From: Lytechinus pictus
Taxonomy: Eukaryota
Assembly (NCBI RefSeq): GCF_037042905.1
Contig: NC_087248.1
Location: 15,066,001 to 15,130,000 of the forward strand
Direction of reading: 5' to 3'
DNA: 64,000 nucleotides
The notes beneath the pieces are model-generated. The model was not told the origin of the DNA, did not search any database, and saw nothing but the letters and a program-made list of their open reading frames with translations. Position numbers and translations under genes: made by a program. Below, piece by piece: positions 2,838 through 37,666 of the stretch; within the stretch, counting starts at the first letter, position 1, and the number at the start of each line of letters is the position of its first letter.

Positions 2838-8382
<5,545 letters not shown>

Positions 8383-9673: not shown

Positions 9674-10134
9674 TACATAGACAAATCACAAGCCTTTTTA
9701 AATAGTTGTTTTGTCAACTGTTTATTCTATTTAAATGAACACTAAACATCATATGTATAAAACTACAGGCTAATGCACATCCATATTATGAATTTATTTT
9801 CATCAATTACACTTGTTTTGGCATAAAAAATTGAATGCAGTTCTCTCCTTTTCCCCTATTTGATTTCTTTTCCTTTTTGGGTATAATTCGATTATTAAAA
9901 GTTTTGATATTAGTGATTACAATTATTCTCAACCAAAAATAAGGTTATGCTATCTTTTTTTCAGAATTAAGAAATATGCAAAATGCTTTTTCTTCTAAAA
10001 TCAGTTTGTAAACCAGTTATTTGCCTGTAATAGATGGTTTCTTATGGGAGCACACACTGACGGAATTCGTCAATAAAGACTTCCTGTCGAAATTACACAA
10101 CTACAACTGTTCCCCTTGGTCTTGGTATGGAAAT

Positions 10135-11196: not shown

Positions 11197-14100
11197 GGTC
11201 CTCAAGGAATCTGTATTACCTGCATATGAGATAAGGATGAGAGAGGGTGAGTGAGAGAGAGGGAGGATAAGAGAGAGTGGGAAAGGAATCGGGAGAAGTG
11301 TATATGAGAGAGACAAGAATGGGAGAGAAGAAAAAATAGAAAGGGAAAATACGAAAAGGAGGAAGAGAGGAAGTAAAAGAGGTAAAAGATGGTTAAACTA
11401 TCGACAAATATCTAAGAGTTCAATAGAATAATATGCATCCATTTAAATCAAGTTGGGCAATGTATCGTGCAATACCTGAAACGATGCCAAATTCCCATTT
11501 TTGAAGTTCATGCATGGAAAAAGAATTCTGATATCTGATAATTTAAAATATTCCTTAGTTACGAGTCCATAGATAAGAAATTGCAAAGCCCATTTAAGTT
11601 ACTGATTCCATGATATGTAATGGAGCAATCAAATATTATTCCCAAGCCTACATATATTATTGAACAGTTACATGGGTTAATATAATATTGGCTTCGCACT
11701 AAAGCCACAAATGAGTTTCTCACTGGAATACTAAAATATCATTTCCAGGCCTAGCATTGACAAGTATGAATGATTTATGGATATAAAGGGTTCGCCAGTT
11801 TTAAAGCCACAAATTAGTTTCTAACTGGGATACTATAATATCACTCCAAGGTCTACCTACTAATGTTTTAAAGGTTAATAAGACTTCAAACTAAAGCCAC
11901 AATTTCTTACTGGGAAAGCAGTGGAGGCTTTGCAAGACGACTTTCATTGCATCGTGTGGCTGATTCTGACTCATTAAAATTGATGCTTTGAGCTGATATG
12001 CAATAGATTTCAGGATTGATGACTGCGTTGACTGACTGTCGAATAGGGAGCTTCCTATATTGTCTGGTATTTTCAGGCCATCTGATACTGTATGTTGGAA
12101 AATAAAGTCAGAAGTGACAGGTGTCAAAACCCTTTATCTCAAGAATGCAAAGGAAATAAAATTCAAGACATATGAAAAATTGATGCTGACAACATTACAA
12201 TACTAAGAAAGAGATTGATCTTAATTATTGGAAAAGTATCAACCACATTAACCATCAAAGAAACAATAGAAAAAATAGAAATAAAAACAAAAATACACAG
12301 GAAATTTTTAAAACAATAAAATACCTACAGTGGAAAGTAACATTTTCATACCAATTTTAAAGTTTATGTGCATGTGATCAAAATCCTACAATGAGTCCCG
12401 AGACAGAATGATTGCTTTATTTATAGATTTACAGCCACATCATAAATTCATGCATAAATTAGCACAATTAATTCATGTAAAAGAGATTCAGTGAAATCTG
12501 GCCATGTAACCTTATAGATCATGTAAGTTTTTTTACCATCGTGCAATATTCTGTTGTGATCGCACAATTTGCAGCCGAGGTTTTGAGGGGGTAATAATGC
12601 CCCCCAATCCCTGACTGACAAGACTAGAAATACCCAGAAAATAATAGGTTAAAATATGGAGCTGAGACAAAACAACTTGAACAAGACAGATCCTTGACTG
12701 TACGCACATCAGAACACCAAACTTCTACGATTATCAAATAATGATCTTTGTTACTTTTGACCTTCAACCTTGTAACCCCTACTATATGCATACATGAGTA
12801 AAGTTTGAAGTTGATAACTCGAAAAATATGGTACAGACGGACGGATGGACAGACAACCCCAAATCATCATGCCACCAGCACCCTCCTTTGGTGAGAGGTA
12901 ACATACTAGTAACTGATGTGAAAAGTGGCAGGGCGGGTTGACTCATGCATTTGTACCAAAAGAGATTAAAAGATCACTGTTTTAGCATTTGAAAGATAAT
13001 AATTGATACATACAGTATACGGGATAAGTCTAGAAACAGTACAAATTCAAGAAAAGAGTTCAGAGGTAAAAAGAGAAATTCCCTTCCTATAGTGAGCAGT
13101 CATTGAGACAATCTTTGTTTAGGATTTTTTTTCTACATAATATCATTCACCAATTTGGTCACATCAACTCCCTTTTATTGGGGGGGGGGGTTCTATTTGG
13201 CAATATCATCATGACTCATAACATGATAATTGATATTAATCAGATTTTAGCAGATAGAAAATATGTTTTACCTGAATCGATTCTTCTCCTTTTAGCCTTG
13301 CTGATATCATCTGTGCCCTCATTCTCCTCTATCCTTTGGCCATCCTCGACTCTTTCCGCTATACTGGTCTGCAAGATTCCCAAAGCACACTCAACTTCTG
13401 TCATGGCCAGCTCGGCTTTATGTTCCTTGAAGAGGCAATGTGCTTGCAGTATCAGGGCATGTGCGGTGTAGATTTCATCCTCTTCCTTCTCTTGTCTTCC
13501 ACTATCAGAATTGCTACTGTCAATGTGGACTTGGTTTTCAAGTGTTGATGAGGATGTTCCTGTGACTGCCAAGGTCTCATTCTGCTCCCGCTGCCTCTTC
13601 CTTCTGCCTACAGTGTCCCCAGAACCGCTTTGACCTTGCATGCCAGTACCATGATGGCCAACATTAATACCATGTCCAAGGGTGTGATGTCCACCGGAAC
13701 CACTGCTGCATCCAGGTATACTCCCATCCCTACCATCCCCGCCTCCTTGGTTGACTGGGTGTGAGCTCCTCTCCGCCTTGGAACGCTCCTCGGAAGACGG
13801 TGTTGCACATGGCACCAAGAAAGGGAACCTGCGGGATGACCTCTTGGTTTCATCATCATCCATCTCAGAGGATGAATCTGGTATGTTGTCATGTTGGAGA
13901 AGAGACGATTTGGACAGGAGTTTATCACACACCGCCAGTGCTTCCTGGGTTTTGCCTGCCTTCAGGAGGGCAGTGGCAGCATCCAAATAAATGGTTTTCA
14001 GAGGAGGCAGGAGTGAATTACCTCGGCTGCCTCTATCCTGAAAAGATAGATAAAACCATCCGTGATCAAATACATATCCACTCCCTCTTCCAGTAAAATT

Positions 14101-20100: not shown

Positions 20101-23100
20101 CCGGGGGGGGGGGGCAGTCTAATATATTCCTGTACACATGCATGACCAAAAAAATGTGTTTAAAGGGGTGTTTTTTCAGTTTTGGACGAGGGCTTCGCGT
20201 GCCCTCTTTAAGGGTATCAAAAACACCGATTTTCAAGAAAAAGGGTGGTTTTAAAAGACTGGTCAACTGTCAATCACGGGGTCAAATGTATTTAGGGTAT
20301 GTTTTTTCCCCAAGCTTTTTCCCAGGGGTCTAATTCTGGCGACAACTTGTTTAGGGGCCAAAATGTGTAAATAAAGCCCGCGAAAAACTTGTTGAGGGGG
20401 TTATTTTGCACACAGAGAAAAAACTTGTTTAGGGGGTGTTTGGAAATAATTTGGTCAAGCATGTGTACAGCAATACATTCGACTTCGCGCACAGGAGCAG
20501 GCAGCGCACTAGTGCTAGTTTACTTTAATGTGACTGTGATGCCTTAAAAATGAAAAAAAATTGGCAAAAGCGTAGGAAAAATTTACTGAAAAAAAAAAGA
20601 TCAAAATTTTGCAAAGAAATATGCTGCAAATTTCTCTCCCACCTCCTGGACCCTAGTAAACAGCTAATGCAAGCCGGTCGAGCCATGTCGGCCAGCGCAG
20701 CATAATCGCACACAATATTATGCACTAGCACAGCAAACAGATGTCGACTTTTTCCAATGAGGCATTGCGAGAATTTTGGCCTGTCCATTGCAACCGATAG
20801 ATGGCGCACCAAATTAGGTGAGAGTATCATGGAAAACTTTAGAAGTATATTTCAATGCTATAAATACCTAAACTACATGGACCACAGAAACTTAAAGAAC
20901 ATCAATTTTGCAGGAATGTCAGCATGACATAATAATATACCTCATCATTTGTCTGTAACATCTGTTCTATATAGCCAAGCTGAAGTTCCACGGACCATCT
21001 TTGTAGTAAACAGCATGATATCCACATCAAACCCAAGAGAACTACTTTATTTCCAACACCATTCAAATCTATCATGAAAAAAAAAACGATATCTAGTATT
21101 GTTCGTTAGCCATTTTCTTGTTCCCTATAAAAAATAAATAAATCATGATAAAAATTTCTAACCAATAAGAAGATTCAATTTGATTTGATACAATTTATTT
21201 TTAATACCATATTCAATTCTTAAAATAACAATACAAAACATATGAAAGATTTCATAACCAAATTAACAAATGAAAATGAAATGGAGAACTACAAGGTACA
21301 TATATAAAACCACAAGGCCTCGTACAATTTTACAGTTTCCAAACAAAACATCAAACTCAGGAGAACTACTTGATTTCCAACACCATTCAAATCTATCATG
21401 AAGAAAAAACGATATCTAGTATTGTTCGTTAGCCATTTTCTTGTTCCCTATCAAAAAATGAATAAATAAATAAATAAATCATGATAAAATTTCTAACCAA
21501 TAAGAAGATTCAATTTGATTTGATAAAATTTATTTTTAATACTATGGGGAACTTGGTCGCCCGCGCGAAGTGCTACAATACGCGCGACCGTGCGTGCGAC
21601 CATGCCCCCCAGAAACCCTCCATACGTACGCAGAATCAGGATCCCAAGATCAGACGCATTCTCACGTTCAGCTCTCGATCAGTACAGTACTACAGTCTAC
21701 TACGTATACGTCCCTCAAGTTCACACGAGTCATCAGGTTCTACGACAAGTCTACTTACAAGTTCTACGACAAGCTCTATATACTTACAAGTCATCGAAGT
21801 CTTCATCCTTTGTAAGATTAAGACGGATTGACCCAGGATTAAGGTGAGTATATGGTTCTCGGTAATCCAGCTTACTTTATTTAGGTTAACATCCATATAG
21901 TCAGTTTACTATATATTGGCGCTGCGTATGAACACGACTCTGCGCTAGTTTTGTAAATGCAGTAAAAAAAGCGGCGCAGAAAACTAAATTGGCTAGACAT
22001 CGTTTTAAGTGCTTAAAAGTAGGGAAAAGTGTACCGTAGGGCGGCAAAGTAAATCGCACTCTTTATAAATTGTTTAAACTTTTGATTCAATCCGCCGTCC
22101 TACAGCGATATAGATCTGTATTATAGTTATCTTAAACAAATAATAGCAGTGTTTTAGGGCTTATTCTCAGCGTTTTTGCGTAGGTTTTAAACCCTTACAC
22201 TATCCCCTTAACCCGGTTTAAATTTTGGGTGTGGCAGGACGCCACGTAGGGCACGCCATTTATGCAAATAGCGTTAAACGTTTTCTATTGTTCGCCGCTC
22301 CCCGCATTCTATTGTGTGTTAGGGCTGAATGTATGCCTTGCCTGAGAGTTGCTTGGGGTGTGGTTCTGGCGATGATTTTGTATGTACCCCCTTTCCCTGT
22401 TAGGATTTAATTAAATTAGGATTTGAATTTTGATGTAGGATAATTAAATTTAGGAATTGTACGTAACTGAGATATATATTTATTGTTGAATTTGGCTGTT
22501 GGTGATTTAATGATTGCGTGATTGGTGAAAGATCGTATTGCTTAACCTGACTTTCCCCCCTTTAGCTGTAGCAGACGACGAGGAATCTACGTACGTTGAG
22601 TAGTTGAGTTATGATGATTCTGTATATGCCGTTCTTGATTCGTGAGGTCGTGTATTGATATTACGAGTGAAAACGAATTTTGACCATTTCTTATACAGAT
22701 TTTCCCGTCTTGCAGTAATCATTTTTTGGCGCCAGTTAGGTTGCCGTTTTACGGATTTATTCGGCGCCGTTTAGATTGCCGTTTTGCATATAGGGAGGAT
22801 TTTACTATTGCCGTTTTATAGGTGCGTGAAGTCTGAATTATACCGTGACTTTTTTGTATGGAATTATCCTAGTGTTATCTGGCTAAAACGGAGTTACCCT
22901 CATACGACTTTAGTACGTCGGGTTTCTCTTGTGGACTTTATTTAATGATCAATTTGATTTCATCTCGGTATTAAGATATCATCTCAAAAAAAAAAAATAA
23001 ATAAATAAATAAATAAAAATAAAAATAATAAAATAAGGAGTGATTGATATATTTTATATGCCGTTGCAAGCCACCAATGCTTATATTTAGAGTGGCATTA

Positions 23101-26100
23101 AGCTACAAATTTTAGTGGATGGTATTTATATTAATTAATTACTTAGTCAGTTGGTGAATACTTAGAGTATTTTTTGGAGCTTGAACATAAGTCTGGGGAC
23201 TCGACCAATTATATTATATTGGCCTAACTTGTCTTCGGATTTAGTGAATATACTCATTGATTCCCGTCACGTACATTGGTGACGCTCGTATTTCGGACAA
23301 TTATTGTGCTAATTTTATTTTAGGACTGAAAGTTAACTTTTGACTTTGTATTTTTATAATACGGTCCGTCTCATTATAATCCGACGCTACTTGCGTTAGT
23401 GTAGTTCCAAAAAACTCTCTCGTACTTAATCTGTTCAGACTTCCGTACACCCGTTGGGAATTTATTTAGAGAAAAAAACTTAATAGTTTATTGGAGTTAA
23501 AGATTATATATTTTGACCGTTATAACAATCTCTGGCCACCGGTAGTTTGTTGCAAAGTCGCACCTGCTGTCAATTAAAAGTACAACGATATTATTAATAG
23601 GGCCTTTGTGGATTGTTTAAGCTGATCTGGAGTAAGGATTTTGCTGGATCGTTTGGAGGTTTATACTTTGGAGTTCTTTAGGACAGAAATTTGTACTTAA
23701 CTTAGTTAATACTAGAACTTCTTGTTATTTCTATTGAATTTATTCGAGAAAAGAAATACTTATGTCAATTTTGCTTTGAAAACAAAAAAATACTTATATA
23801 AATTTTGCTTTGAATAAAGAAGAAAATAAAATTTTCATTCGGTTCTGAGATAGAAAGTTTTGAATCTGTAATTCGAGTTTATATAGGAAAGAATTATTCC
23901 AAACAAATTTGACTTTGAGATATAATATTTTAGAACTTCCATCTAATTATAAGAGCATAGGGTGCTTGTAATTTATTTCGGTATTCTTAGTTTATATCAG
24001 TATTTGGTCATTTTCTTTGGTCATCGACAAGCAAGGTCATTTTTAGTTTTTAATTATCTGAAGGGTGTTTTCAGTATACAAAGCTTATAGATAAGGGATA
24101 AGCAAAGTATATATATATACGCCCGAAGATAATTTAAACTTTTGTGTCAGCAGTGGAGGCATTTTCCACTTAGTACACATATAGGTGCTGGGTGCACCTG
24201 GTTAGCTCAGCATCGGAGTAGAGGCTAGTGTTTTATTTTCGGTATATTTACACATTTGTACTTTAATAATATAGGCCTCATATTGGCCATATCAGAGCTT
24301 TAAACCTTTGATAAATTTTAATAATTAGGTTTTCCAAACAAACTTAGTTTTTAGTTGTTGTTGTTTAGCTCTCTGGTAAGATTGATGATTGAAAGTGATC
24401 AATCCTATTTGGTGGTGATCACTGATCAGTGATAATTCTGATTTTCGAAGGAGCTTTACTCAGTACTTAGGTGCTTGTTAGCGTAAGATAGAACTTTCAA
24501 AATTTAGTCACCCTTCCTCGAATCATGTCCAAGATTCAAATTAATTGTTGTGAACCAGAGGAGCTATTGAAGGTCCCAGGAATTGGTAGTACTTTGGCCG
24601 AGCGAATATTGGTCCTCCGAGAGGCTAATGATATTACGATGGAAACTTTCTTAGATATTCCGCACATACGTAATGCCTCTGAGATTGCAGGGTATTTTGA
24701 TTTTGCCCCTTATGCTGTTTTAGAATCTGGCACAAATTCTACCGATTCTATTGAGGAAAGAGTGATAGTAGGCCCTGCTGCGGCAGGTGATGTAGCAGCA
24801 CAGGGCGATGAGCAGCCAACCCAATCCCCCTCTCCCTACCCTTTTGAATCCTATCCTCAAGATTCGTTGCCAGGACATCTTAAAATAGTAATGGGGAGAG
24901 AGAGTGGAGAGTCAGGGGCTGCCAGCTCACGCAGAGATAAGGTAGCTAGAGGCAATTCGCCCTCACGGAAGCATGTGGTTTTCTCTTCGCCGCGAAAACG
25001 CACACCCCCACCGAGGGAAGGTGAGGATGATGGGCTTTCTTCCCCTATGAAGTCACCCTCAAGTGACCAGGCCAGTCCTAGGTCATCTAGGGATCATGCT
25101 AACCCACCAAGGGGTAGCCACGGGTCACCTATATCTCGGTCACCCACATCTGGTCGCCACAACAGCCGCCGTGGATCACCACGTACAAACCGCCGGGATA
25201 GTCGATTTGATTCTCCTTTTCGGGATTATGGTGGGCGCCGACAAGGGTCACCTAGAGGTCACAGGCGGGATCGATATGATCATAGTAGGGATCGTTATGA
25301 TCGGAGTAGGGATCGTTATGATTGCAGTAGGGATCGATATGACTACTATAGGAACAGGTATCGCTATTCCCCTCGCCGATATCGAAATGACCGTTATGAT
25401 TCTCCCCCACGATATTATAGGGGTAATCACAGTCCGTGTAGAGGTCGTGATGATTGGCATAGGTCAAACTCTAACCGTTCCCACTCGCCTGACCATGGCC
25501 CTCGTAGGTCATCATCCCCCCGAAGAACACAAGACCACAATAGGCGGGATGCAAGACAGTCAAATGAAGACGTAGCAGTTGATTTATCATCGCGTGTTTT
25601 GCAATCACTATTTGCCATCAACCGTGCCCCTGAAACGCAGGCCCCCCAATCCCAAGAGCATGATTTCGAGTCCCACAACCCACCACCGGTACGAAGATCC
25701 TTAAGTACCAGTACAGGGGAAGGGGACAGACCCCGACTGGTTTCGGTGCCAAAGTCCATAACCTTTAACGGTACGGGCAGCTGGCAAGCCTTCATTGCGA
25801 AGTTTAAATTATTCGCCAGTGAGAATGGGTGGGACGCCAAACAATCGCGTAATTACTTATGTTGGACGTTAGATGGGGAGGCTAGCTCCTATTTAGCCAC
25901 GCTTCTTGAGCGAGAGCCCGATATGCCATATAACATTATGGTGAATAGGATGGAAAAGAGGTTCACACTTAAAGAAATGCCTGAGGTATCGCAAATGAAT
26001 TTCTCTTATGCAAGACAGGCCCCTGACGAGAATGTCACCAAGTGGGCTGCTCGGTTGCTTACCTTAGCCTCTCAGGCTTTTCCTAATTTGCCCGAGGCAT

Positions 26101-29100
26101 ATGTGCAGCAGCAGGTAGTGATGCGTTTCTGCCAGGGCTCCGCAGATAAGGAAGCTGGGCAACATGCACTCAATTCCAGACCTAAGACTGTGGAAGAGGC
26201 TGTTGATCTTGTTAAATGGTATCAACACTCACACCGAGCTATTTATGGGAAACCGCGCAGGGAGGTTAAACATGTCTCCTTGTCTGAAAAGACCCCCCTT
26301 GAACCAACCGCAAGGCAGGTGAGTGCGCCCCATACTTCCCCAGCGTATACCGTTTTAGAGCGAAGGGTTTCCGCTTTAGAAGGGAAGATGGACTCTGCAC
26401 TAAAGCAATTGGAAGCACTTGGGTCTTTGCCGGCTACTGTTCAAAGCCTAGCTGAGAGTGTAAAAAAGTTAGTAGTTTCTCCTCGTGGTAGAGGCAGAGC
26501 ATCTCCTGCCCGAGGGAATATGTCACCGGGTCGTATTGGTGCCTGCTTCCACTGTGGAAAGTCTGGACACTTCAAGAACGAGTGTCCAGAACGAGGCCCC
26601 CGACCGAGCGTTTCCTTTGTCTGTGAAGTTTTGGGAAACGATTCGGGATCGGAGGAGGAGGTCCGACCCCGATCCCACTAAAAGCGGACCCCAATTCTAA
26701 TTTGGATTCCGAAAATGCCAAAGTACTTTTACAGGATTCGCTCTCTCAAGAGGAGCAAGAAACAGATATATCCTTGGTAGTACTTGAGGCTAACAGGTCG
26801 TTGGATAGCAAAGACTCTCTTCCCAGAGGAAGTAAGGAACTGGGTGTTCCCTCTCCTGAATTGATTGTTAAAGAATCCGAACTGAGAGATGGCGGTCAGG
26901 ACGGTATTGGTATCACTGAAGGGTCAGGGAAAGTTCCGAGTGTCAAGGAACTCTCCTCTCCACCCCCCATCAGCCAGGTGATTGATACGCCTAGGCCTCC
27001 ATTGGAGCCCAGCCCCTGGTTGGTACCCCCCTGGCCACCCCCTGAAGAGGATCCGCAATTAGATAGCTGGATCCTGAAGGACCTCGAACAGGCCTCGGAC
27101 GTTGTAGTCTGCCGGATAAAGTCATCATCTACTTATAGCATAAATATATTGGTCGGTAACCAATTGATGCGTGCCGTAATCGATACTGCTGCAGAGGTGA
27201 CTATAATGTCTGATAAAATCTACCATGCACTACGCCCCGCTCCTCCAGTTATTAGGTCAGTCGTCCTAAATACAGCTGGAAGAAATATGAGTATGACTGG
27301 AATAATTGTAGGACCGGTTGATATGACCCTAGGTGGCCAGACGTTTAGTGAATGCGTCTATGTTGCCCCGATAGACGATGATATGCTGCTTGGAGCTGAT
27401 CTCCTCAAGAAGCACAGTGCATTCATCAATATACCGGATTCCTTGTTAATCTTTCAGGGCGAGTGCATTACCATGACTTGTGGTGAAGACACTGATACCT
27501 CTCAGGTTTTCGTTTCAAATTCTGTGACCATCCCCCCAATGTCAGTCAAACGAGTACAATGCGAACTTGATTCTTCTTGCACGTTTGACCAGTTTATGGT
27601 AGAGCCGGATGTTGCCCTTATAGGATTGGTTCCCCGCACATTGCATTCTGGGAGTAGCTCTATACAGTTATATGCTGTGAATGCTACTGATGTTTCCATC
27701 CATTGGGATAAAGGTCAACACCTTGGACAGGCTTCTCGCGTAGGTTCTAGAGAACCCCCCGACTTTGACAATCCTATTCCAAGTGTCAGCCAGGTTGACT
27801 TGACTGGGGATGCCAAAATCCCCACCCATTTGGAAGATCTTTGGAAACGATCTTCGGAACACTTAATTCCTGAACAGCAAGGAATATTAAAGGGCTTGTT
27901 GCTAGAATTTGAGGGTGTCTTTGCCCGGGATGAATTCGACTTGGGTAATTTCACAGCCATTACCCATTCAATCGACACAGGCGAAGCTACGCCCATCAAG
28001 CAAAAGATGAGGCGTACACCCATGAACTTTGTTCAAGAGGAGCGAGCATGTCTTAACAAAATGCTGTCCGCCGGGGTGATCCAACCTTCGATGTCGGAAT
28101 GGGCGTCCGCCCCTGTCTTAATCCGAAAACGGGACGGTAGCGTCCGTTGGTGTATAGACTATCGTAAACTTAACAACGTTACGAAGAAAGATGTCTACCC
28201 GCTTCCTTGCATCGAAGAGTGTTTGGATACCTTAGCAGAGAATTCATGGTTCTCCAAACTAGATGCAAATTCTGCCTATTGGCAAGTCAATCTCAGGCCG
28301 GAAGACCGTGAAAAGACAGCATTTATCACCAAGTATGGTTTATACGAGTTTGTTCGCATGGGCTTCGGCTTATGTAATGCCCCAGCCACGTTCTCTCGAG
28401 CAATGAATCTCATCCTCAGGGGATTGAACTGGGATATCGCTTTAGCCTTCTTGGATGATGTTGTAGTGCTCGGCACCTCTTTCTCTGATCACGTCACTAA
28501 CATCAGACAGGTGTTGGAACGATTTAGGGACTTTAAGCTTAAGTTGAAGCCAAAGAAATGTTCCTTCTTCCAACGTCGGGTAGAGTTTCTTGGTAGAGAG
28601 GTTGATGGGAATGGTCTCCACCTTAAGGAAGAGCATGTTCAAGCCGTAGTGGACTGGCCCACCCCTAAGTCCACAAAGGAGGTGGAACGGCTCCTCGGAC
28701 TTGTAAATTATCACCGTGTCTTCCTTAAAGACTATGCCCAGGTTGTAGGGCCACTATATGGCCTCACTGGGAACAATGACTTCCGCTGGGAGGACCAGCA
28801 TCAAGTGGCTTTTGAGGAAGTCAAGAGGCTCATGACCACCGCCCCTATCCTCGCACTACCCAACTCCACGGATCCGTTCATTCTGGATACCGATGCGTCT
28901 GGCACAGCTATTGGGGCTGTTTTAACCCAAGTCCAACAGGGGCAAGAGCGAACTATTGCATATGGCAGTTTTTCCCTGACCCCTGAACAACGACGCTATT
29001 GTGTAACCAGGCGTGAGCTGTTGGCAGTGGTACGGTTTACCCGCCAGTATAGGCATTACCTCCTCGGAAAACCTTTTACAGTTCGCACGGACCATGGGAG

Positions 29101-32100
29101 TCTGACATGGTTAATGAACTTTAGGGAGCCTCAAGGGCAGCTTGCCCGGTGGCTCGAAGAACTGGGCCAATATGATATGGCAGTTGAACACCGCCCTGGC
29201 AAGAAACATCAGAATGCCGATGCATTGTCTCGTATACCCGACGGCGACTTTACATGTGAGAACTACCGTCTGGGTATTGACCCCAAGAGTTTGCCCTGTG
29301 GTGGTTGTGCATACTGCCTGAAGGCCCACACAGACTGGGCACACTTCACTGATGCTGTGGACAATGTGATCCAATTGGCACAAAGGAGTAAAGTTTCGGA
29401 AGTTACCCTTGACCCCGGAGAATCGGAGGACCTCTTTATCACTCACCTGGATATTGGTCCAATCGACGGTCCATTCTCTTTTAGGGTCAACGGGGTAACC
29501 CATGATGCCGGGTCTGGTATCGACCTCACCTCAATGGACTTTCTTCGGAAAGAACAAGAGGCTGATGGTCAACTGACCCCCTTGCGCAAATGGCTGCTCG
29601 ATAAAGAGGAACCAGACGAGGGAACTGTTCTTCTGTGGGACCCCGCTGGAAAGTTCCTATGGGTCAACCGAGAGCTGTTTGTGCTTAAGGATGGTGTCAT
29701 TTGGCGTAAAGGCGATGACAATCTCCTACTTGTAGTGCCCAAGTCTTTGCGTACTGAAGTGATCAAGCTAAATCATGATCCTCCTTCAGCAGCTCATGCT
29801 GGTGTGAACCGTACTAAAGGTAAACTTCGGTCCAAATACTACTGGTATGGTATGTCGGGCGACATCCAAGAGTATATTCGGAGATGTGCCGTCTGTAATA
29901 AAAATAAGAAAGCCGTGAGGTATGGGAAACACCCCATGATAACTTATCATGCGGGGGCCCCGATGGAACGTGTACACCTCGATTTCATGGGTCCTTTACC
30001 CAAAACCTCACGAGGTAACGTGTACATCTTGATGATGGTGGACCAGTTCACCAAGTGGGTTGAGTGTGTCCCACTGCCCTCTCAGACAGCGGAAGTAACT
30101 GCTCAGGCAGCCATTAGCGAGTTCTTTTGCCGCTTTGGCTATCCATTCCAGATTTTTACTGATCAGGGCAGAAATTTTGAGAGCAGGTTATTCACGAACA
30201 TCTGTAAACTGCTCCATATACATAAGGCTAGGACTTCCCCGTACCGACCTTCCGCAAACGGCCAGGTTGAACGTTTCAACCGAACCTTAATGGATGCGGT
30301 AAGGTGCTACATTGGGAAGTCCCAGACTCATTGGGACCACAACCTCGCCCAGATCGCTGGAGCGATTCGTTCCACGATCAACCGTAGTACGGGATTCACG
30401 CCCAATCAATTGATGCTGGGGCGTGAAACTAATCAACCAGCGGAGCTGATTTTTCCACTTCCCCCATCCGTCTCTGACCGACCTCTGGATGAATATTCAT
30501 CTCAGAGCATCCGAGAGGCGCACGATGCTGCGAGAGCCACCCTCCGGAATACACAGCGACGGTTGAAGCGGGATTACGACATAAAGGTATACTTGCGGCA
30601 ATTTAAAGAAGGGGACCGAGTATACCTTCTCGCCAAGGCGACCCCCAAGGGAAAATGCAAGAAGCTGCAATCTCCCTGGAAGGGTCCGGCTATTATCGTG
30701 AAGCGATATACCCCTTATGTATACCGGGTGATCTATCGGAACAAGGCCCTGACTGTAAACCATGACCAGCTCAAAAGGTGCCTTGACGAGGCCAAGCCCT
30801 CAGGCCCTGACTGGAGGAAGGAAAGGTATTGCTACTGTAGAACCCCCGACGATGGATCGTTCATGATTCAATGTGATGGGTGCGATGAGTGGTTCCATGG
30901 TGCATGTGTTGGTGTTACCCATGCGGAAGGAATGTCTATTGACAAGTATTTTTGTCCTTTTTGTAGCTGTGGGTAACCCATTTCCTTTTCTCTTTTCAGA
31001 TGGATGAGCTAGAACTCCACGCCGAGTCAACCTTCGAGGTGGAAATGGACACCCGGCCCCCCTCTACCCCCCCAGAGGCTATCCCTCCAGAGGCTGCCTG
31101 GCAAGCAGAAATAGATGCACGGATGGGCCCAATCCCGCCCCCTGGCAGTAGACAAAAACGTACGTGGCTCCGTAAGTTGCGTCGATTACGGAGTCGGTTA
31201 AGGGCAGGGTCCAGGGATTCCCCTAATTCCCTAAAGGAAACTCCCGGTCCTGCCCCTGTCATGATGAAGGGCGTTAAGCCATCCAAAGGAATGGGGAGGG
31301 GGAGAGGGTTTGCAAGGGTCCGCAAGGGTCCCATAACACCCGGCACGCCCGGTACTTTCCATAGTAAGGGGAGAGGGAGGGGTCTCTTGAATTACCTCAA
31401 CCGAGAAGATTTCTCTTTAATGGATGCCCCCGCCCCTGCTCCGAGCTCCCATCCCCCGCCTCTGCTAGGGTTTGATAGCCATTTTCACCCAGACAGGTGT
31501 GGTTGGTACAGTAAGAGAAAGGGGAAGAGCGTGGTGACAAAGCACCCGGTAGAGATAGTCGGAGGGGTCCTGAACTTCTGTGACCCAGAGTTCTTTATGG
31601 ACCCCGGCTTTCTTTCCCGGGTGCTGGCTCACAGCCCCCCATACAACAAGAGGGACGGGAGCTGGAGATTAGCAGTAGGGATACACCCTAAACAGGCCTC
31701 GCAGTACACCGAAGATCAGTGGCAGCGTTTGGTTGCCCTACTTCAAAGCCCCTTGGTTGTAGGCGTAAGCGAACTGGGCTTTGACTTTTCTGTCAACTCC
31801 CAGTGGTGGCCTGACCAGGAAGCGCTCTTTCTGCGACTTCTTGGTCAGGGCACCCAAGGGAGGGTCCTTATCCTTCACCTAAGGGGTGATTCGAAGAATA
31901 ATACCGCGTACGCGGCGCACACTTTGGCCCGCCGGCTTCTTGCAAAGCACTGCTCCCCACTCCAAAGGATACACATCCATAACTTCTCCAGCGATGCTTT
32001 GCAAGCCGGGAAATGGATCGCTGCCTTTCCATATTGCTATTTCGGTATTGCCGGGATGGCAGCGTACTTCACAACAGAACAAATTCAAGGCCTTAGGGCC

Positions 32101-35100
32101 GTCCCCGCGGATCGGCTAATTCTGGAGACCGATGCTCCGCATCTCCCTCCTCGCCCGGACATGACGGTGACTTCACCTGAAAGCCTGGGTGATGTGGGGG
32201 CGGTGGTAGCCAACCTGCGGGGGCAGCCCTTGGCCACTATAATGGCCCAAGCCACATACAATGCAAAACTACTGTATGGCCTGTTAGGGTAATAGGGTAT
32301 GTTATTCATTTTTTTGGTGGCCCCTGTCTCATGTTTTATTTTTCTGTCCAAAATCTTGCCCTTCCTACTTTGGAAGTTAATTAAAAGATAAAGTCGCGGC
32401 CTATCCATGTAATTGAGGGGTCTTAGGTTCTTCTCTTCTGCGATGCAGTATTTTCTCTCTCCGGAGAACGTTTCTATTCTGTATCGTGGCGGAGAAGGAC
32501 TGAGAAGTTTTCCCAACGTACCGGGCCGAACTAGACCAGATTTTACATTCCCAAGTGGAAAGTGTCTGTTGGCTGTCATCTTTCGGACCCTCCTTAGTCT
32601 TCAGGGACTGGTAAAGGTTGCGGACTCTTATATTCCATAAAGCCCAAGGGACATTGGTTTAGTTTTTTGAAATATTGTGCCAACTTGTGTCGCACGTAAA
32701 GTTATATATCCAGGTGATATTATATTTATTCCAACCGTGGTGCCAAAATACGTCACAAGTGAGTTTATAAATTTCTTTACATACTATCCAGCGGATATAG
32801 GTTTGGTTTTCAAAGACAATATTGTGCCAAGTTGTGTCACACAAAGTTTTTTAGTTATTTCAACCATTGTGCCGAATGACGTCACAGGTAAAATTATACA
32901 TTTCCTTTAATGATATCCAGGCGATATGGTCTTCAATTTAGTTTTAAAGTCTGCTGGCCAAGCAAGGCTTATTACTTGGTTATCATCCTCCAAAGATTGG
33001 GGATTGAGATTTGGGGCCATCCATATTTTTTTGTGTGTAAATAGTCCTTTTCACGCATGAACTACATGAACTACATGCTTAGTAGCTCGTAACCTAAAGA
33101 CATGTATACATATATATGTATATGTTCAATAAAGTTTTTTGAGGGTCTGTTTAATGCCCACGAGTATAGGGAAAGAAACCTAAATTTCCTTAGTATATGT
33201 TTTCGTGATATTTCCGAGATACTGGGAAGTAAATAGTTCCTTTCAGGGGTCTAGGACGAGTGTTTTTATTCTTGGTACTACATGTACCGGTTTATTGTTA
33301 CTTTTTTGTCCACTCCTCAGACCTATCTTTATATCTACATGAGTGATTAGGAAAGTACAGTTAATAATCAATCTCCCCTTTATTTTTACGGTTGGGGGGA
33401 ATATGGGGAACTTGGTCGCCCGCGCGAAGTGCTACAATACGCGCGACCGTGCGTGCGACCATGCCCCCCAGAAACCCTCCATACGTACGCAGAATCAGGA
33501 TCCCAAGATCAGAGGCATTCTCACGTTCAGCTCTCGATCAGTACAGTACTACAGTCTACTACGTATACGTCCCTCAAGTTCACACGAGTCATCAGGTTCT
33601 ACGACAAGTCTACTTACAAGTTCTACGACAAGCTCTATATACTTACAAGTCATCGAAGTCTTCATCCTTTGTAAGATTAAGACGGATTGACCCAGGATTA
33701 AGGTGAGTATATGGTTCTCGGTAATCCAGCTTACTTTATTTAGGTTAACATCCATATAGTCAGTTTACTATAATACCATATTCAATTCTTAAAATAATAA
33801 TACAAAACATATGAAAGATTTCATAACCAAATAAAAAAATGAAAATGAAAAGAACTACAAGGTACATATATAAAACCACAAGGCCTTGTTCAAATTTACA
33901 GTTTCCAAACAAAACAAAAATGACAGTTTATTCAAATGATTCACCAGAGCTCTGACAATGTTTTGAACAATAATAGTAGGTAGTGTATTACTTATCAAGA
34001 AAATTACTGCCATCATACTTGACATATGAATCACAAAGAAAGACACAAATAGTGTAACTATCAAGAAAACCACGACCAAGAAAATATGTGAAAGATATTG
34101 AATTCAAGCGACTGATTATGATTGTGTAGCTAGTTTATTGTCTAGCTAGTGACTTCAAATCTCCATAATTTTATTTGCAGGAATTTTTGGGGGCCGACAA
34201 GAATTTGATATGGAGGCTTGTTTCATACTGTATAGTAATTTTTTACAAATGTTACAAATATATTCTAGAGTAAGTAGAGTAGGCCTACTGTGAATGATAT
34301 TATAAGATAACGTCTCTGCATCTGAAAGGCACGGTATATAGTAAGTTTAATAGAAGCATACTTTTAATATAATTTTTATGTTGAATTTACCTGACGATTT
34401 AATTGAAATCTTCTGAATCATGATGGTGATGTCATCTTCTTGTGGAGCCTCCTCACCATACAAAAACCTGTAGACTGAAAGAAAAAAGTTTAGGTTTGAC
34501 AGTGTCCAATTCACATTCAATAGACTTTCTTGATAAATATACAAACCCATGCTAAATATGTTGAGCCCCCCCCCCCCTTCAGCAAAAAAAAAAAATCAAT
34601 CAGGGTCAAGAGTTTTAAATCACTTCTATGAGTATAACCAGGAGAAATGCTCTTTATTTAAAAAAAATAGATAGAATTAATTCACACACCCTCCATCTAA
34701 AGAAAAATAAAATGAATAAATCAAACTACACTTTTTCAATTAAAAAAGAAAACAATCAGAAATAAATTAATGTTCTTTTACAATTCTCAAGAAATTACAT
34801 ATTTTTATATTTCAAAAACATAATGGAAGGGCAAATGAAAATTCAATGTTGGCCGAGTTTCATTTGAAACCCCCCTTTTGTGCTTGACTTGAATCATTAC
34901 TATTTTGTTCAATTGTTGGATGCTTTACCACTAAAACCAACCCATTGCAGCGGGTCCCTCTATATGCTTTCCTCAGCTTACCTCTTCTGAAGGCTTGGTT
35001 GATCATCGGGCGACTTAACCCTACCAGACCATCCGGTCCATGCTCGCCTGATCTTCTTAGATTGTTAATCGCATGTTTGCATGTTGCACTGAGAACAGTC

Positions 35101-37666
35101 TGGAGGTGAGTCTCTGTGAGTGGAAGGCCTGATATGAATCATGAAAAGAAACTTCATTACAAGTTATTAGTATTTCAAAAATCAGTTTGTAAAAATGTAT
35201 GAGGAAGAGGAGACCTATGATTGCGAAGAGGTCAAGGGGGTGAGAAAGAAAGAAGAGCGAGAAGAAGGGGAGATGGGGAAGCAGAAGGGGGAGGAAGAGG
35301 AGGAAAATGGGAAGGAAGGAAAAAAGAAGAAGAGGATGCCTATTATAATCTTAAGCTCACATACATAAAGTTTTTTTACATTTGATTCAAAATGAAAACT
35401 GCAATCTATTCAGGGTAATGTGGGAAACAAAATGTGTTGGTATTGATGATCTTGATAGAAAATCAAGAAAGCCAAACAAATTCTTTTTCACTGGCAATCT
35501 TTTTTATAACTGAAATATTATCTTATGAAAGTTTGGTAGTTTGCACTATGTTCTATCAAGGTAACTTGTTTTTTTTTTCAAACAATTATTTACAATGCAC
35601 GCATGCAATTACTAGATATGATTTTCAATAAAATAAACTCTCAAAGAATTCAAGAAATAAATGCATTAGACTCTTAAAAAATTCAGAAAACCATAATTGA
35701 TCAACTGTATTGTAAATTTTTTGGTTTAAAAAAAATATAATACTGGTAATATGACCTTAGAAATCTCTTACCCAATAGTTTACTCAGTGATTCCTCTTCT
35801 CCTTTCTCAATCTATAAAACAATGCAGAAAAATGAAACTCAATGATTTCAATTAACATGATTAAACTTATTCCAGGAAGCTCTGCCGCTTTGATGGATAA
35901 ATAATTAACTGGGGTTAGTTTGAAAGTTATGATTGAGAAGTCTTGTATCAAACTAGAGTCTGTTAACAGTCTTTTTTGGGGATTTATATAAAAACAAATT
36001 CTGAAATTTTGTCCATCATCACATTCCTAGACCTAGGCCAAGTAAAGAGTTCAACAGTTCAGGGAAACAACTAACCCAGGGAGCTCCGGCCCGCAAAGCC
36101 GGCCGGAGCCCAGGAGTCGACCGTGCAAAACGACGGAGACACGGGACTGGGGTAGTTTGGGGTCTCAATAGTAATCTTAATAAAATGTGGAAACAGAAAT
36201 TATGCACTTACCACGATTATATGGATGAAGGTCTATCGTGACACACAAATCCTGACATCGAGGCACAGACTGGAACCTAAAAAAAAAATATATAGCCTCG
36301 GTCTCGATCGGCCATTTTGTTTTGAATTTTGAAAGAAGGAGAGGTATCGCGACATAACTTTTCGTTTTTTTGAGGTTCCAGTCTGTGCCTCGATGTCAAG
36401 ATTTGTGTGTCACGATAGACCTTCATCCATATAATCATGGTAAGTGCATAATTTCTGTTTCCACATTTTATTAAGATTACTATTGAGACCCCAATCTACC
36501 CCAGTGTCTCCCACTCACACGTATTGCGAGGTTAGTATTAGTTAGACAGCTGGCAGCCGTCTGTTTCGTTTTCGAGGAGTTTTAAGCATTTTTTATTTTT
36601 TTAATTTCTCCTCGTACACAGACGGCTCACTATCGTGCAGCCACCATTAGGGGACTTACAATGCAAATAAAAATCCCCCTGTCGGGGCTCATTGATTTTT
36701 GTCTTTATTTCATAAAAAATATATAAGAAGAACTGTACCAAAATAAAGATTATTATTCCGTTTTGGCCTGAAATGCACCAAAACGGGGAAAAATAAACTT
36801 AAAAGGGGAAAAAAACAGTGACTTACTTCGGCTGTCACGCAACTTAACTTCCCTGTTTTATCCAAACTTAATACATAAACATATGGCCATTGTCCCCTGT
36901 ACAGATCGCGCTAGAACTTCGGTCTCTGTATTTGGTGAGTGGAGCCAACGTAGTTCAGCGGAACAACCAAAATACAGAGACTGAAGCTTTTGGTCTAAGT
37001 ATTAGTATAGCTGTATACTAACCTCGCACCATGAACCGCGTTTGGCAGTGGATTTCTAACTAGTGGGACAGGGTCGCGCGTGCTGCGATCCCACTTCTGG
37101 TGTCCACAACACACGACTTCTATGGCTTGATTTTTCTGTGCGTGGCGGCATGTAATGAACCCTTGAGTGAGTGTCTCCCTCATTTTGCACGGTCGACTCC
37201 TGGGCTCCGGCCCGCTGGGTTAGGAAACAACTAACTGCACAGCACAGAGACCATGAACATGATGAAGGTTTTGCTTTCAAATAGACCTGTCCTATCTCAG
37301 TTTCTAGACTAACCTGCTAACTTAGACTCAGGTCAATGCAGGTACTTAGAGTTAGAGTTAGATCATAGAACTGAGTTAAGTCTATATTACTTAGTAATAG
37401 TAATACTAATGATTGGAAATAAGTCACGATTCAATTTCCATTTAAAAAATCATTTGAATTTTTAGAGTCCAAAAATAAAAAATAGCAAATAATTCAGGAT
37501 TTACCATCTTTCCAGAAATCCTACTAGATGCAAAACCGCCACCACCACCAATCAGAGTAGCATCGCAGAGCCAGTTCAAAAGGCCAGAATGTAAGGGGTC
37601 TTCGCTTGTGTTTCGTCCGCCAGAGTTCAAGGGGAAGTCGTGTGCTGGAATCTGGTTCATTTTCAT
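11035..37666 (-). CDS. FANCG: Fanconi anemia group G TPR protein; coding exons 37505-37666, 35772-35811, 34982-35128, 34391-34474, 20941-21068, 19742-19814, 18977-19126, 18125-18255, 17170-17319, 15925-16112, 14720-14795, 13272-14037, 11911-12087, 11035-11219
   Basis: All exons join in frame through GT-AG introns. Peptides VQVYNLMGCCLRQMGKPHMA..FRKAL, YRDLGDEDAEMKSLHLLVKAL, IYLDAATALLKAGKTQEALAVCDKLLSK and LEKLNRKGEAVKAWSRL are colinear with vertebrate FANCG TPR segments as recalled. The first exon is the least certain. Confidence 0.85.
17559..17812 (+). mobile_element. SURF1-like tRNA-derived SINE (sea urchin retroposon family)
   Basis: ACCGGTGTGTTGGGTCAGTTGGTAGAGCGTCCGTCTCACAACCGGGAGGTCGG...CCCCGGCCGCGTCAGACCAAAAGACG head, ending near an AATAAA and short TTCATC repeats. 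Confidence 0.75.
19171..19313. repeat. (AAT)n-type microsatellite, intronic
   Basis: Run of AAT/AAC/TAC/GAT triplets. Confidence 0.95.
21024..21542. repeat. ~324-bp tandem duplication; second copy is split by the LTR element and resumes at 33777-~33917
   Basis: 21024-21347 matches 21348-21542 plus 33777-33917; copy 1 shows the empty site TTTTTAATACCATATTC. Confidence 0.88.
21543..21913 (+). repeat. 5' LTR
   Basis: Direct repeat of 33402-33772; one mismatch seen (CAGACGC vs CAGAGGC); preceded by ATAC at 21539-21542. Confidence 0.96.
21841..21849 (+). promoter_or_regulatory. Consensus splice donor inside the LTR (AAG|GTGAGT)
   Basis: Full consensus match; candidate donor for a subgenomic RNA. 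Confidence 0.6.
21917..21926 (+). promoter_or_regulatory. Primer-binding site, tRNA-Ser-like
   Basis: TGGCGCTGCG 3 nt after the LTR is complementary to a tRNA 3' end CGCAGCGCCA (G73 discriminator, typical of tRNA-Ser). Confidence 0.65.
24525..26681 (+). CDS. gag: Gag (718 aa): N-terminal helix-hairpin-helix, RS/RD-rich region, capsid-like domain, CCHC zinc knuckle
   Basis: IQINCCEPEELLKVPGIGSTLAERILVLRE (HhH); FNGTGSWQAFIAKF..NGW (capsid-like); CFHCGKSGHFKNEC (knuckle). Confidence 0.92.
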   Translation: MSKIQINCCEPEELLKVPGIGSTLAERILVLREANDITMETFLDIPHIRNASEIAGYFDFAPYAVLESGTNSTDSIEERVIVGPAAAGDVAAQGDEQPTQSPSPYPFESYPQDSLPGHLKIVMGRESGESGAASSRRDKVARGNSPSRKHVVFSSPRKRTPPPREGEDDGLSSPMKSPSSDQASPRSSRDHANPPRGSHGSPISRSPTSGRHNSRRGSPRTNRRDSRFDSPFRDYGGRRQGSPRGHRRDRYDHSRDRYDRSRDRYDCSRDRYDYYRNRYRYSPRRYRNDRYDSPPRYYRGNHSPCRGRDDWHRSNSNRSHSPDHGPRRSSSPRRTQDHNRRDARQSNEDVAVDLSSRVLQSLFAINRAPETQAPQSQEHDFESHNPPPVRRSLSTSTGEGDRPRLVSVPKSITFNGTGSWQAFIAKFKLFASENGWDAKQSRNYLCWTLDGEASSYLATLLEREPDMPYNIMVNRMEKRFTLKEMPEVSQMNFSYARQAPDENVTKWAARLLTLASQAFPNLPEAYVQQQVVMRFCQGSADKEAGQHALNSRPKTVEEAVDLVKWYQHSHRAIYGKPRREVKHVSLSEKTPLEPTARQVSAPHTSPAYTVLERRVSALEGKMDSALKQLEALGSLPATVQSLAESVKKLVVSPRGRGRASPARGNMSPGRIGACFHCGKSGHFKNECPERGPRPSVSFVCEVLGNDSGSEEEVRPRSH
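26633..26690 (+). promoter_or_regulatory. -1 programmed ribosomal frameshift signal: slippery G GGA AAC plus H-type pseudoknot
   Basis: Heptamer at 26633-26639 in the gag frame; pol frame is -1 and open from 26627; stems GGGATCGG/CCGATCCC and GGTCCG/CGGACC. Confidence 0.88.
26633..30976 (+). CDS. pol: Pol (expressed as Gag-Pol): protease, RT, RNase H, integrase with C-terminal PHD finger
   Basis: PR VIDTAAEVT; RT WCIDYRKLN, KLDANSAYWQ, FGLCNAPATF, AFLDD; RH TDASGTAIGAVL, RELLAV, TDHGSL, NADALSR; IN HDPPSAAH..CAVC, HLDFMGP, TDQGRNF, NGQVERFN, WKGPA; PHD YCYC..MIQCDGCDEWFHGACV..YFCPFC. Confidence 0.96.
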   Translation, partial: GKRFGIGGGGPTPIPLKADPNSNLDSENAKVLLQDSLSQEEQETDISLVVLEANRSLDSKDSLPRGSKELGVPSPELIVKESELRDGGQDGIGITEGSGKVPSVKELSSPPPISQVIDTPRPPLEPSPWLVPPWPPPEEDPQLDSWILKDLEQASDVVVCRIKSSSTYSINILVGNQLMRAVIDTAAEVTIMSDKIYHALRPAPPVIRSVVLNTAGRNMSMTGIIVGPVDMTLGGQTFSECVYVAPIDDDMLLGADLLKKHSAFINIPDSLLIFQGECITMTCGEDTDTSQVFVSNSVTIPPMSVKRVQCELDSSCTFDQFMVEPDVALIGLVPRTLHSGSSSIQLYAVNATDVSIHWDKGQHLGQASRVGSREPPDFDNPIPSVSQVDLTGDAKIPTHLEDLWKRSSEHLIPEQQGILKGLLLEFEGVFARDEFDLGNFTAITHSIDTGEATPIKQKMRRTPMNFVQEERACLNKMLSAGVIQPSMSEWASAPVLIRKRDGSVRWCIDYRKLNNVTKKDVYPLPCIEECLDTLAENSWFSKLDANSAYWQVNLRPEDREKTAFITKYGLYEFVRMGFGLCNAPATFSRAMNLILRGLNWDIALAFLDDVVVLGTSFSDHVTNIRQVLERFRDFKLKLKPKKCSFFQRRVEFLGREVDGNGLHLKEEHVQAVVDWPTPKSTKEVERLLGLVNYHRVFLKDYAQVVGPLYGLTGNNDFRWEDQHQVAFEEVKRLMTTAPILALPNSTDPFILDTDASGTAIGAVLTQVQQGQERTIAYGSFSLTPEQRRYCVTRRELLAVVRFTRQYRHYLLGKPFTVRTDHGSLTWLMNFREPQGQLARWLEELGQYDMAVEHRPGKKHQNADALSRIPDGDFTCENYRLGIDPKSLPCGGCAYCLKAHTDWAHFTDAVDNVIQLAQRSKVSEVTLDPGESEDLFITHLDIGPIDGPFSFRVNGVTHDAGSGIDLTSMDFLRKEQEADGQLTPLRKWLLDKEEPDEGTVLLWDPAGKFLWVNRELFVLKDGVIWRKGDDNLLLVVPKSLRTEVIKLNHDPPSAAHAGVNRTKGKLRSKYYWYGMSGDIQEYIRRCAVCNKNKKAVRYGKHPMITYHAGAPMERVHLDFMGPLPKTSRGNVYILMMVDQFTKWVECVPLPSQTAEVTAQAAISEFFCRFGYPFQIFTDQGRNFESRLFTNICKLLHIHKARTSPYRPSANGQVERFNRTLMDAVRCYIGKSQTHWDHNLAQIAGAIRSTINRSTGFTPNQLMLGRETNQPAELIFPLPPSVSDRPLDEYSSQSIREAHDAARATLRNTQRRLKRDYDIKVYLRQFKEGDRVYLLAKATPKGKCKKLQSPWKGPAIIVKRYTPYVYRVIYRNKALTVNHDQLKRCLDEAKPSGPDWRKERYCYCRTPDDGSFMIQCDGCDEWFHGACVGVTHAEGMSIDKYFCPFCSCG
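30974..30999 (+). promoter_or_regulatory. Splice acceptor (branch-like TAAC, polypyrimidine tract, CAG) directly before the ORF3 ATG
   Basis: TAACCCATTTCCTTTTCTCTTTTCAG|ATG. Confidence 0.8.
31000..32292 (+). CDS. ORF3: TatD-family metal-dependent DNase (430 aa) with ~150-aa basic/Pro-rich N-terminal extension
   Basis: Ordered TatD motifs FDSHFH, AVGIHP, VGVSELGFDF, LILHLR, IHIHNFS, YFGIAG, VPADRLILETDAPHL, TYNAKLLYGL. Confidence 0.93.
   Translation: MDELELHAESTFEVEMDTRPPSTPPEAIPPEAAWQAEIDARMGPIPPPGSRQKRTWLRKLRRLRSRLRAGSRDSPNSLKETPGPAPVMMKGVKPSKGMGRGRGFARVRKGPITPGTPGTFHSKGRGRGLLNYLNREDFSLMDAPAPAPSSHPPPLLGFDSHFHPDRCGWYSKRKGKSVVTKHPVEIVGGVLNFCDPEFFMDPGFLSRVLAHSPPYNKRDGSWRLAVGIHPKQASQYTEDQWQRLVALLQSPLVVGVSELGFDFSVNSQWWPDQEALFLRLLGQGTQGRVLILHLRGDSKNNTAYAAHTLARRLLAKHCSPLQRIHIHNFSSDALQAGKWIAAFPYCYFGIAGMAAYFTTEQIQGLRAVPADRLILETDAPHLPPRPDMTVTSPESLGDVGAVVANLRGQPLATIMAQATYNAKLLYGLLG
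33390..33401 (+). promoter_or_regulatory. Polypurine tract
   Basis: GGTTGGGGGGAA immediately 5' of the 3' LTR. Confidence 0.75.
33402..33772 (+). repeat. 3' LTR
   Basis: Copy of the 5' LTR, followed by ATAC (33773-33776). Confidence 0.96.
36072..37222. mobile_element. Foldback/MULE-like non-autonomous element with long TIRs, carrying nested insertions
   Basis: TAACCCAG...CTGGGTTA ends, 9-bp TSD GGAAACAAC (36063-36071, 37223-37231); inverted arms 36146-36286 / 36365-36505. Confidence 0.8.
36543..36997. mobile_element. TAGAC-ended non-autonomous transposon, copy 2 (nested)
   Basis: Reverse complement of 1550-1995; flanked by AGTATTAGT repeats. Confidence 0.75.

Follow-up and report, generated by a model that had tools for sequence, protein, structure and literature searches.

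The Gag protein of an intact Ty3/Gypsy retrotransposon in Lytechinus pictus begins with a real, selected (HhH)2 domain, which stands at the matrix position and belongs to an old lineage of these elements in marine invertebrates. The element occupies positions 21543-33772 of the window, by which we mean the whole 64,000-nucleotide stretch of contig NC_087248.1 that was analyzed, and has three unbroken ORFs (gag, pol and ORF3) 3' of a 2.6-kb leader (Table 1). Only for a few elements is it understood how retrotransposon particles get to chromosomes, and a 62-residue domain that is kept across dozens of families, together with a young and intact element, makes this question testable on the isolated domain.

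Table 1. Features of the element, in window coordinates
Feature	Position	Strand	Basis or remark
Target-site duplication ATAC, left copy	21539..21542		same 4 bases adjoin the 3' LTR
5' LTR, 371 bp, ends TA...TA	21543..21913	+	99.73% identity to 33402-33772
Candidate splice donor AAG/GTGAGT within LTR	21844..21849	+	motif only
Candidate primer-binding site TGGCGCTGCG	21917..21926	+	position (3 bases past LTR), TGG start
(HhH)2 domain, Gag aa 1-62	24525..24710	+	Pfam, profile, AlphaFold2, structural match
Disordered linker, about 330-340 aa, with R/S/D-rich tract	24711..25736	+	pLDDT mostly <50 (aa 71-398)
Capsid domain (CA-NTD + CA-CTD), about aa 405-575	25737..26249	+	helical, pLDDT >90
CCHC zinc knuckle (nucleocapsid), aa 673-689	26541..26591	+	Pfam zf-CCHC, E 3.3e-5
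pol: protease, RT, RNase H, integrase, C-terminal PHD finger (30830-30964)	26627..30976	+	Pfam
Candidate -1 frameshift site G GGA AAC and hairpin 3' of it	26633..26676	+	gag/pol overlap in -1 frame
Candidate splice acceptor, pyrimidine tract ending CAG	30980..30999	+	motif only; abuts ORF3 ATG
ORF3, 430 aa; TatD nuclease domain 31471-32280	31000..32292	+	Pfam TatD_DNase, E 4e-29
Polypurine tract GGGGGGAA	33394..33401	+	abuts 3' LTR
3' LTR, 371 bp	33402..33772	+	99.73% identity to 5' LTR
Target-site duplication ATAC, right copy	33773..33776		same 4 bases as left copy

The element is assigned to Ty3/Gypsy by its paired LTRs, target-site duplication, primer-binding site and polypurine tract (the last two recognized by motif and position), by the pol domain order PR-RT-RH-IN, and by a Gag with a capsid fold and a CCHC knuckle. 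The TG...CA LTR ends that are usual, but not universal, in Ty3/Gypsy elements are absent from this one. Contigs of run X1 that diverge from the window at 21543 and 21913 support the limits of the LTRs. The candidate primer-binding site, which may be of the tRNA-Ser type, recurs as the same 10-mer upstream of gag in one of 24 related loci with HhH (L014), most of which are cut short. The insertion lies within a single ~330-bp unit of an AT-rich repeat (21024-21542 and 33773-33916).

The slippery sequence in the gag-pol overlap suggests that a Gag-Pol protein would begin with the HhH domain too; the hairpin that follows it (-20.5 kcal/mol, z -0.88) is no better than those of shuffled sequences. 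The donor motif in the LTR and the acceptor motif before the ORF3 start codon are suggestive of an env-like spliced message, and pyrimidine-rich sequence with an AG is found just 5' of the ORF3 start in several relatives as well. Two RNA read sets that carry the same species label contribute 13 and 11 reads over 12 kb and no splice joint, coverage that does not suffice to assess expression or splicing.

The element family is young and multi-copy, because near-identical proteins exist in L. pictus: one is 100% identical to the RT/RH query over the matched part, another is 95% identical to part of Gag, and the ORF3 cluster contains three named L. pictus proteins, which are encoded on other long contigs. 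The depth of run X1 is greater over the LTR, the leader and the 3' region than over gag-pol. One contig of this run, at depth 2, joins position 21926 in the primer-binding region to position 31040 in ORF3, with 18 foreign letters in between and gag-pol skipped. This contig is perhaps a non-autonomous derivative that contains only TatD.

The gag ORF (24525-26681, + frame, ATG at 24525-24527) encodes 718 amino acids, and in a model of the full-length protein the HhH domain is followed by a disordered linker, then by the capsid domain, and last by a coil and the CCHC knuckle. The HhH domain has a first hairpin formed by G19-I20-G21, an invariant R32, a second hairpin without GhG, and a closing D59-F60. 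Foldseek matches the capsid domain to the PNMA2 capsid (E 9.5e-5 and 1.5e-4) and next to Arc and Ty3. The ORF is therefore Gag by its capsid fold and CCHC knuckle, and an earlier, sequence-only reading was right to regard the N-terminus of such a protein as an unusual place for HhH. The linker varies from 42 to 660 amino acids across 75 Gags, with a median of 174. In the window copy it includes a repeat tract rich in RD and RS (25270-25420), equaled in RS content by only three of the 75 linkers. A 174-amino-acid ORF at 25051-25575 overlaps this tract and is probably its shadow.

The sequence-only reading had proposed that the first 62 residues of Gag form a ComEA/HHH_3-type domain whose second HhH is degenerate. 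The peptide is present at this place, and Pfam and AlphaFold2 agree on its nature. Pfam HHH_3 (PF12836) matches aa 3-36 with an E-value of 1.8e-7, and scores 31.6 bits on an 80-residue piece and 32.4 bits on aa 1-65, above the cut-off of 27. Of the 23 aligned HhH domains, 22 match HHH_3 at E<=0.01. AlphaFold2, given a 23-row alignment, predicts a compact two-hairpin helical fold with a pLDDT of 91.3, whose best structural match among 48,161 chains is ComEA (PDB 8dss; Z 9.2, rmsd 1.7 Å over 61 residues). The next matches are Tex (Z 8.0) and a ComEA-related protein of Thermus (7.6), then PsbU, TEFM and Spt6. The second HhH is indeed degenerate: its helices are present, and its GhG hairpin occurs in 0 of 75 aligned copies. 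One detail of the proposed consensus does not fit, as the window reads N-C-C where N-x-A was claimed. Protein-language-model matches for aa 1-75 are all HHH_3-like (the best at 0.91, with 140 of 256 features shared), which we treat as a lead only. A word-seeded search with the same 75 residues alone returned 92 candidates, none at E<=0.001; this is a miss of sensitivity, as HMMER found relatives.

If the domain were a chance resemblance or a neutral passenger, two marginal scores would be explained: the whole Gag reaches 26.8 bits, slightly below the HHH_3 cut-off, and Foldseek ranks 8dss first for the 65-residue model with an E-value of merely 0.029. We regard this explanation as very improbable, and it is already largely refuted by relatives, structure, selection and shuffle controls. 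A profile built from 22 related loci, with the window sequence left out, gives the window HhH 57.6 bits, as against 7.3 for the best of 1000 shuffles and no more than 5.7 for any other ORF of the window (2163 in all). Moreover, HhH is retained in 74 clusters at <50% identity, whereas the linker varies freely. We rejected bacterial contamination as the source of the domain, since it shares its reading frame with the capsid and has an LTR on either side.

HhH is a lineage trait of Gag and not a one-off acquisition. An HMMER search with Gag detected 3876 relatives among 50%-identity representatives, and in the best 150, which were examined, HhH is found in 74 with an iterated profile and in 73 with the loci-only profile, a few of whose loci are the same elements as listed proteins. 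Of the sequences in which 100 residues or more precede the capsid core, 74 of 95 (query included) contain it, and the match begins within the first 13 residues in 65 of 75. Among 30 proteins that were looked up, the named carriers of an HhH-Gag are L. pictus, Pinctada imbricata and Mytilus edulis; named relatives of Pol add Lingula and Ostrea, and a relative of the TatD protein adds Dreissena. The named hosts are thus sea urchins, bivalves and a brachiopod. No relative of the element was found in the viral contigs searched.

Our estimate of selection comes from the single unsaturated pair of loci (L069/L078), in which HhH has a dN of 0.052 and a dS of 0.168 over 60 codons, and the linker has a dN of 0.172. 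Eight more distant pairs, with synonymous sites at or near saturation, are 43-59% identical in HhH, versus 25-50% in the linker.

The resemblance to ComEA is established for the fold and fails for the key DNA contacts. In Vibrio cholerae ComEA, G60, K62 and K63 come after the first hairpin; DNA is contacted mainly by K63, and R71 probably has a structural role (PMC3879209). The lysines corresponding to K63, which are K164 in Bacillus subtilis and K166 in Geobacillus stearothermophilus, are needed for DNA binding by ComEA (PMC9747964). Like ComEA (PF12836; PDB 8dss, 2duy), the Gag domain is a compact (HhH)2 with an IN start, a first GIG hairpin and an arginine 11 residues on, and this arginine, which matches R71, is kept in 72 of 74 copies. 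However, the position of the lysine, three residues past the hairpin glycine, is Leu24 in the window, and only two of 72 copies have Lys there. Gag HhH further differs from ComEA in lacking the second GhG, in ending with a conserved DF motif, and in being fused to a retrotransposon capsid with no competence context. The NCBIfam models for ComEA do not reach their cut-offs (17 vs 152 bits and 16.5 vs 53 bits). We rejected filing the domain as ComEA proper.

An intact first GhG is found in 45 of 71 copies (G19 in 56 and G21 in 58 of 75 rows), and 40 of 72 have K or R at one of two places after the first hairpin. The net charge has a median of 0, and the window copy, at -5, is acidic. The most conserved residues (N7, L14, A25, I28, R32, D59 and F60) look structural. 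Judging from these sequences, the domain probably does not bind DNA as strongly as ComEA does. The (HhH)2 fold also occurs in PsbU, GspK and Spt6/Tex, so the fold alone says nothing about function.

EEPD1 (PDB 9yi2) is the top whole-protein match of the HhH profile in the PDB (E 8.6e-16), and like Gag HhH it has a hydrophobic residue at the position of the ComEA lysine. Its (HhH)2 domains are described as flexibly tethered and as binding DNA only when several copies act together (PMC12988330). Unlike Gag, which has one HhH and no match to EEP, EEPD1 carries two (HhH)2 domains and EEP in one chain. Scored per domain, the profile prefers ComEA (41.7 bits) to EEPD1 (32.6 bits), and the order is reversed for whole proteins, so the donor may have been an animal EEPD1-like gene or a bacterial ComEA-like one.

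A domain that has lost the DNA-contact lysine and the second hairpin, and that is neutral to acidic, might instead bind protein. It could drive dimerization or oligomerization of Gag at capsid vertices or dock a host factor, in the manner of the (HhH)2 domains of XPF-ERCC1. The conserved core and variable surface suit such a module, as do the (HhH)2 heterodimers cited in PMC12988330 and the sharing of the fold with PsbU and GspK. The glycines of the first hairpin and the basic residues near it nevertheless remain common, and we consider a protein-protein module unlikely.

We tentatively favor a different role, as a weak, multivalent tether to chromatin or DNA, and hold it to be possible without calling it probable. 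The scarcity of the lysine, the absence of the second GhG, the incomplete retention of the first, and the charge all count against it. The reading draws on analogy with other capsids and, for weak binding that adds up over several copies, on the precedent of EEPD1. The 156 N-terminal residues of PNMA2 are reported to form an outer, disordered spike (bioRxiv 2023.02.09.527862), and the N-terminus of the Ty3 capsid protein runs outward from a shell of 540 copies (PMC6525542). In these particles the residues that precede the capsid domain are on the outside, so an uncleaved HhH is expected there as well, in many copies and away from the cDNA, and binding to cDNA is for the same reason less likely than binding to chromatin. 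The HhH domains would thus be held on long flexible linkers outside the capsid shell, with hundreds of copies per particle. Each might bind the DNA backbone weakly and independently of sequence through its sole intact hairpin, and jointly the copies could hold the particle, or a capsid-bearing integration complex, on host chromatin. The PHD finger of the integrase would meanwhile read histone tails, and TatD would be a separate product of the element that need not contact HhH.

Tethering of a capsid-bearing complex to chromatin has been proposed for MLV p12 (PMC6021111), and we infer by analogy that HhH may work similarly. Both p12 and the chromatin-binding sequence of foamy-virus Gag resemble Gag HhH in being carried by Gag outside the capsid domain (PMC6021111). 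They are short peptides that bind nucleosomal histones, in contrast to a folded HhH, and the analogy is functional only. If the tether exists, this Gag would be the first in which a folded HhH binds DNA, and its tethering would be convergent with that by gammaretroviral p12. More doubtful is the wider proposal of a widespread, still active Gypsy lineage with its own chromatin kit, comprising an outer HhH tether, a PHD reader on the integrase and a separate TatD nuclease in the env slot. PNMA2, Arc and Ty3 share with this Gag the capsid fold and an N-terminal extension expected outside, but the available text of the sources on them reports neither HhH nor TatD.

RNA is another conceivable ligand: unassembled Gag could use HhH, together with the R/S-rich linker, to select or export unspliced genomic RNA. 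Tex is the second-best structural match, with Spt6 and TEFM lower, and the window Gag combines an RS/RD tract with a 2.6-kb 5' leader. There is a precedent in the Caenorhabditis elegans element Cer1, which exports its genomic RNA by means of a protein that shares Gag sequence (PMC10309623). However, Z differences of about 1 amount to ties, at least five RS/SR per 100 residues are found in only three of 75 linkers, and packaging is already served by the CCHC knuckle, all of which make an RNA-binding role improbable. The Cer1 protein, CERV, has a domain that its authors call helix-hairpin-helix. It differs from Gag HhH, by description only, in that it holds a potential leucine zipper and is not tied to HHH_3 in the available text (PMC10309623).

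ORF3 encodes a TatD protein whose metal-site residues (H161, H163, E258, H293, H327 and D378) are conserved in 26-27 of 27 copies, and its alignment with TatD chains in the PDB covers the E, H, H and D of the metal site. Two close copies of ORF3 are called 'putative TATDN2' in RefSeq. Most relatives have a longer ORF3 of 600-1090 amino acids (for example, L001:6346-9588, L074:10551-13166 and L053:8060-9988), compared with 430 in the window. Before TatD these proteins have a conserved region without a Pfam match, with Cys/His residues and then an 'HWR' motif, that is absent from the window ORF3.

We detected no stretch of the Gag alignment conserved enough for a scan of loci, and used the Pol alignment instead. 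The resulting 90 loci comprise 68 from metagenomes (in the best 80 of 161 Pol matches) and 22 from bacterial genome bins, the latter most likely being host DNA, judged by content. HhH is present at 24 loci, TatD at 36 and PHD at 42. The sequence-only reading had asked whether HhH-Gag and TatD co-occur across related elements; they do, being found together on 17 of the 90 contigs, many of which stem from three assemblies, so that the hosts are few, and most of the contigs without the pair are too short to judge. At the seven HhH loci without TatD, the contig either has no integrase or stops about 1 kb or less from it, and TatD lies 1.7-4.6 kb downstream of the integrase in relatives (0.9 kb in the window). 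No HhH was called at 19 TatD loci: in 14 of them the contig contains no capsid, two more are truncated on the 5' side, the HhH of L007 and of L053 is weak or divergent (our profile E 0.0011; Pfam HHH_3 E 0.015), and L032 seems to lack it. Where at least 3 kb is available beyond the integrase, 25 of 27 PHD loci contain TatD. On several contigs TatD is 5' of HhH, probably from collapsed LTRs, and in L017 and L066 HhH is presumed to belong to Gag, the capsid being off the contig.

The pairing of HhH with TatD has one shared origin and did not arise repeatedly. In a 66-row tree of RT/RH, the 19 rows scored for PHD, including the window, fall inside one group of 40 rows (SH-aLRT 100), and the PHD finger on the integrase marks a younger subgroup of the lineage. 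L002, which is without TatD, belongs to the clade with HhH and PHD. Elements with TatD and no PHD, two of which have HhH, lie just outside the 40-row group, and HhH and TatD look older than PHD, with a fork that is not firm in the tree. Beside or below these elements are L044, L084 and L085, which have GDSL-like extra ORFs. The GDSL/SGNH-like ORFs are located at L044:3514-4680 (E 2e-9), L084:7304-8113 (E 0.04) and L085:399-1187 (by likeness to L084). Two relatives of Pol (P0327 and P0404) carry a Tpt1/KptA RNA 2'-phosphotransferase domain (PF01885).

The sequence-only reading envisaged that HhH binds cDNA or chromatin and perhaps works with TatD. In the fuller form of this idea, HhH would hold cDNA and be the DNA-binding half of a split HhH-plus-nuclease that trims or repairs cDNA ends or RNA:DNA hybrids. 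The joint presence on 17 contigs suits it, and the pair is also seen in subgroups without PHD (L053 and L066), with GDSL-bearing neighbors lacking both. The TatD active site is intact, human TATDN2 digests the RNA in R-loops (PMC10711561), and EEPD1 fuses (HhH)2 to a nuclease fold. Co-inheritance within one lineage, however, counts as one event, and L032 and L002 each have only part of the pair. cDNA is made inside the shell, whereas HhH is expected outside, and ORF3, a gene in its own right with a separate start, lies outside Gag-Pol. A direct link between HhH and TatD would rest on co-occurrence only, and a predicted complex of the TatD domain with HhH, made without alignments, has a score of 0.00 that speaks neither for nor against binding. 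We therefore judge this partnership improbable, on a par with the RNA-binding role.

The architecture of HhH-Gag, PHD and TatD is apparently undescribed. In a full-text literature search, with Repbase, GyDB and subscription journals outside its scope, neither an HHH_3 domain in a Gag nor TatD in an LTR element was found; the Cer1 paper (PMC10309623) was the only pertinent one that mentions helix-hairpin-helix together with LTR retrotransposons. The LTR retrotransposons Juno and Vesta of bdelloid rotifers also have an enzymatic ORF3 after pol, encoding a DEDDy 3'-5' exonuclease or a GDSL esterase (PMC5408684). GDSL-like ORFs, as in Vesta, are likewise present in the lineages neighboring this one. 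The present element differs in that its ORF3 nuclease is TatD and its Gag has HhH. The named Gypsy clades (MolGy1-16, Cigr-1, CsRN1 and Mag) are set by RT/RH trees (PMC6238403). The term 'PHD' does not occur in the available text of two surveys of mollusc and annelid elements (PMC6238403, PMC8556966), and therefore the lineage may be a MolGy clade whose architecture was not noted there. Classifications based on RT alone may already have counted this lineage, which is marked by its signature of HhH-Gag, PHD-integrase and TatD ORF3, and have missed its architecture.

Annotation is affected as well, in that copies are listed as host 'TATDN2', and related contigs within MAGs of bacterial symbionts are read as ComEA-like and TatD genes. 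RefSeq gives the element-borne TatD copies P0504-P0506 the names of host TATDN2/TatD genes, and the bacterial MAGs include 22 Gypsy contigs (L069-L090), 19 of which belong to a single Sedimenticola bin.

Other features of the window lie outside the element. An open frame of 322 amino acids at 3585-4553 (+) has a short match to RsmB/F methyltransferases (E 1.6e-4) and probably represents one exon of an NSUN-type host gene. Reverse-transcriptase fragments (Pfam RVT_1) at 49881-50390 (+) and 59250-60047 (-) are probably LINE remnants. There is a tandem array with a 136-bp period at 10050-11292, and MITE-like inverted repeats with 141-bp arms that are 97% identical occupy 36097-37216. Two copies of a tRNA-like SINE head are found at 366-566 and 44519-44725.
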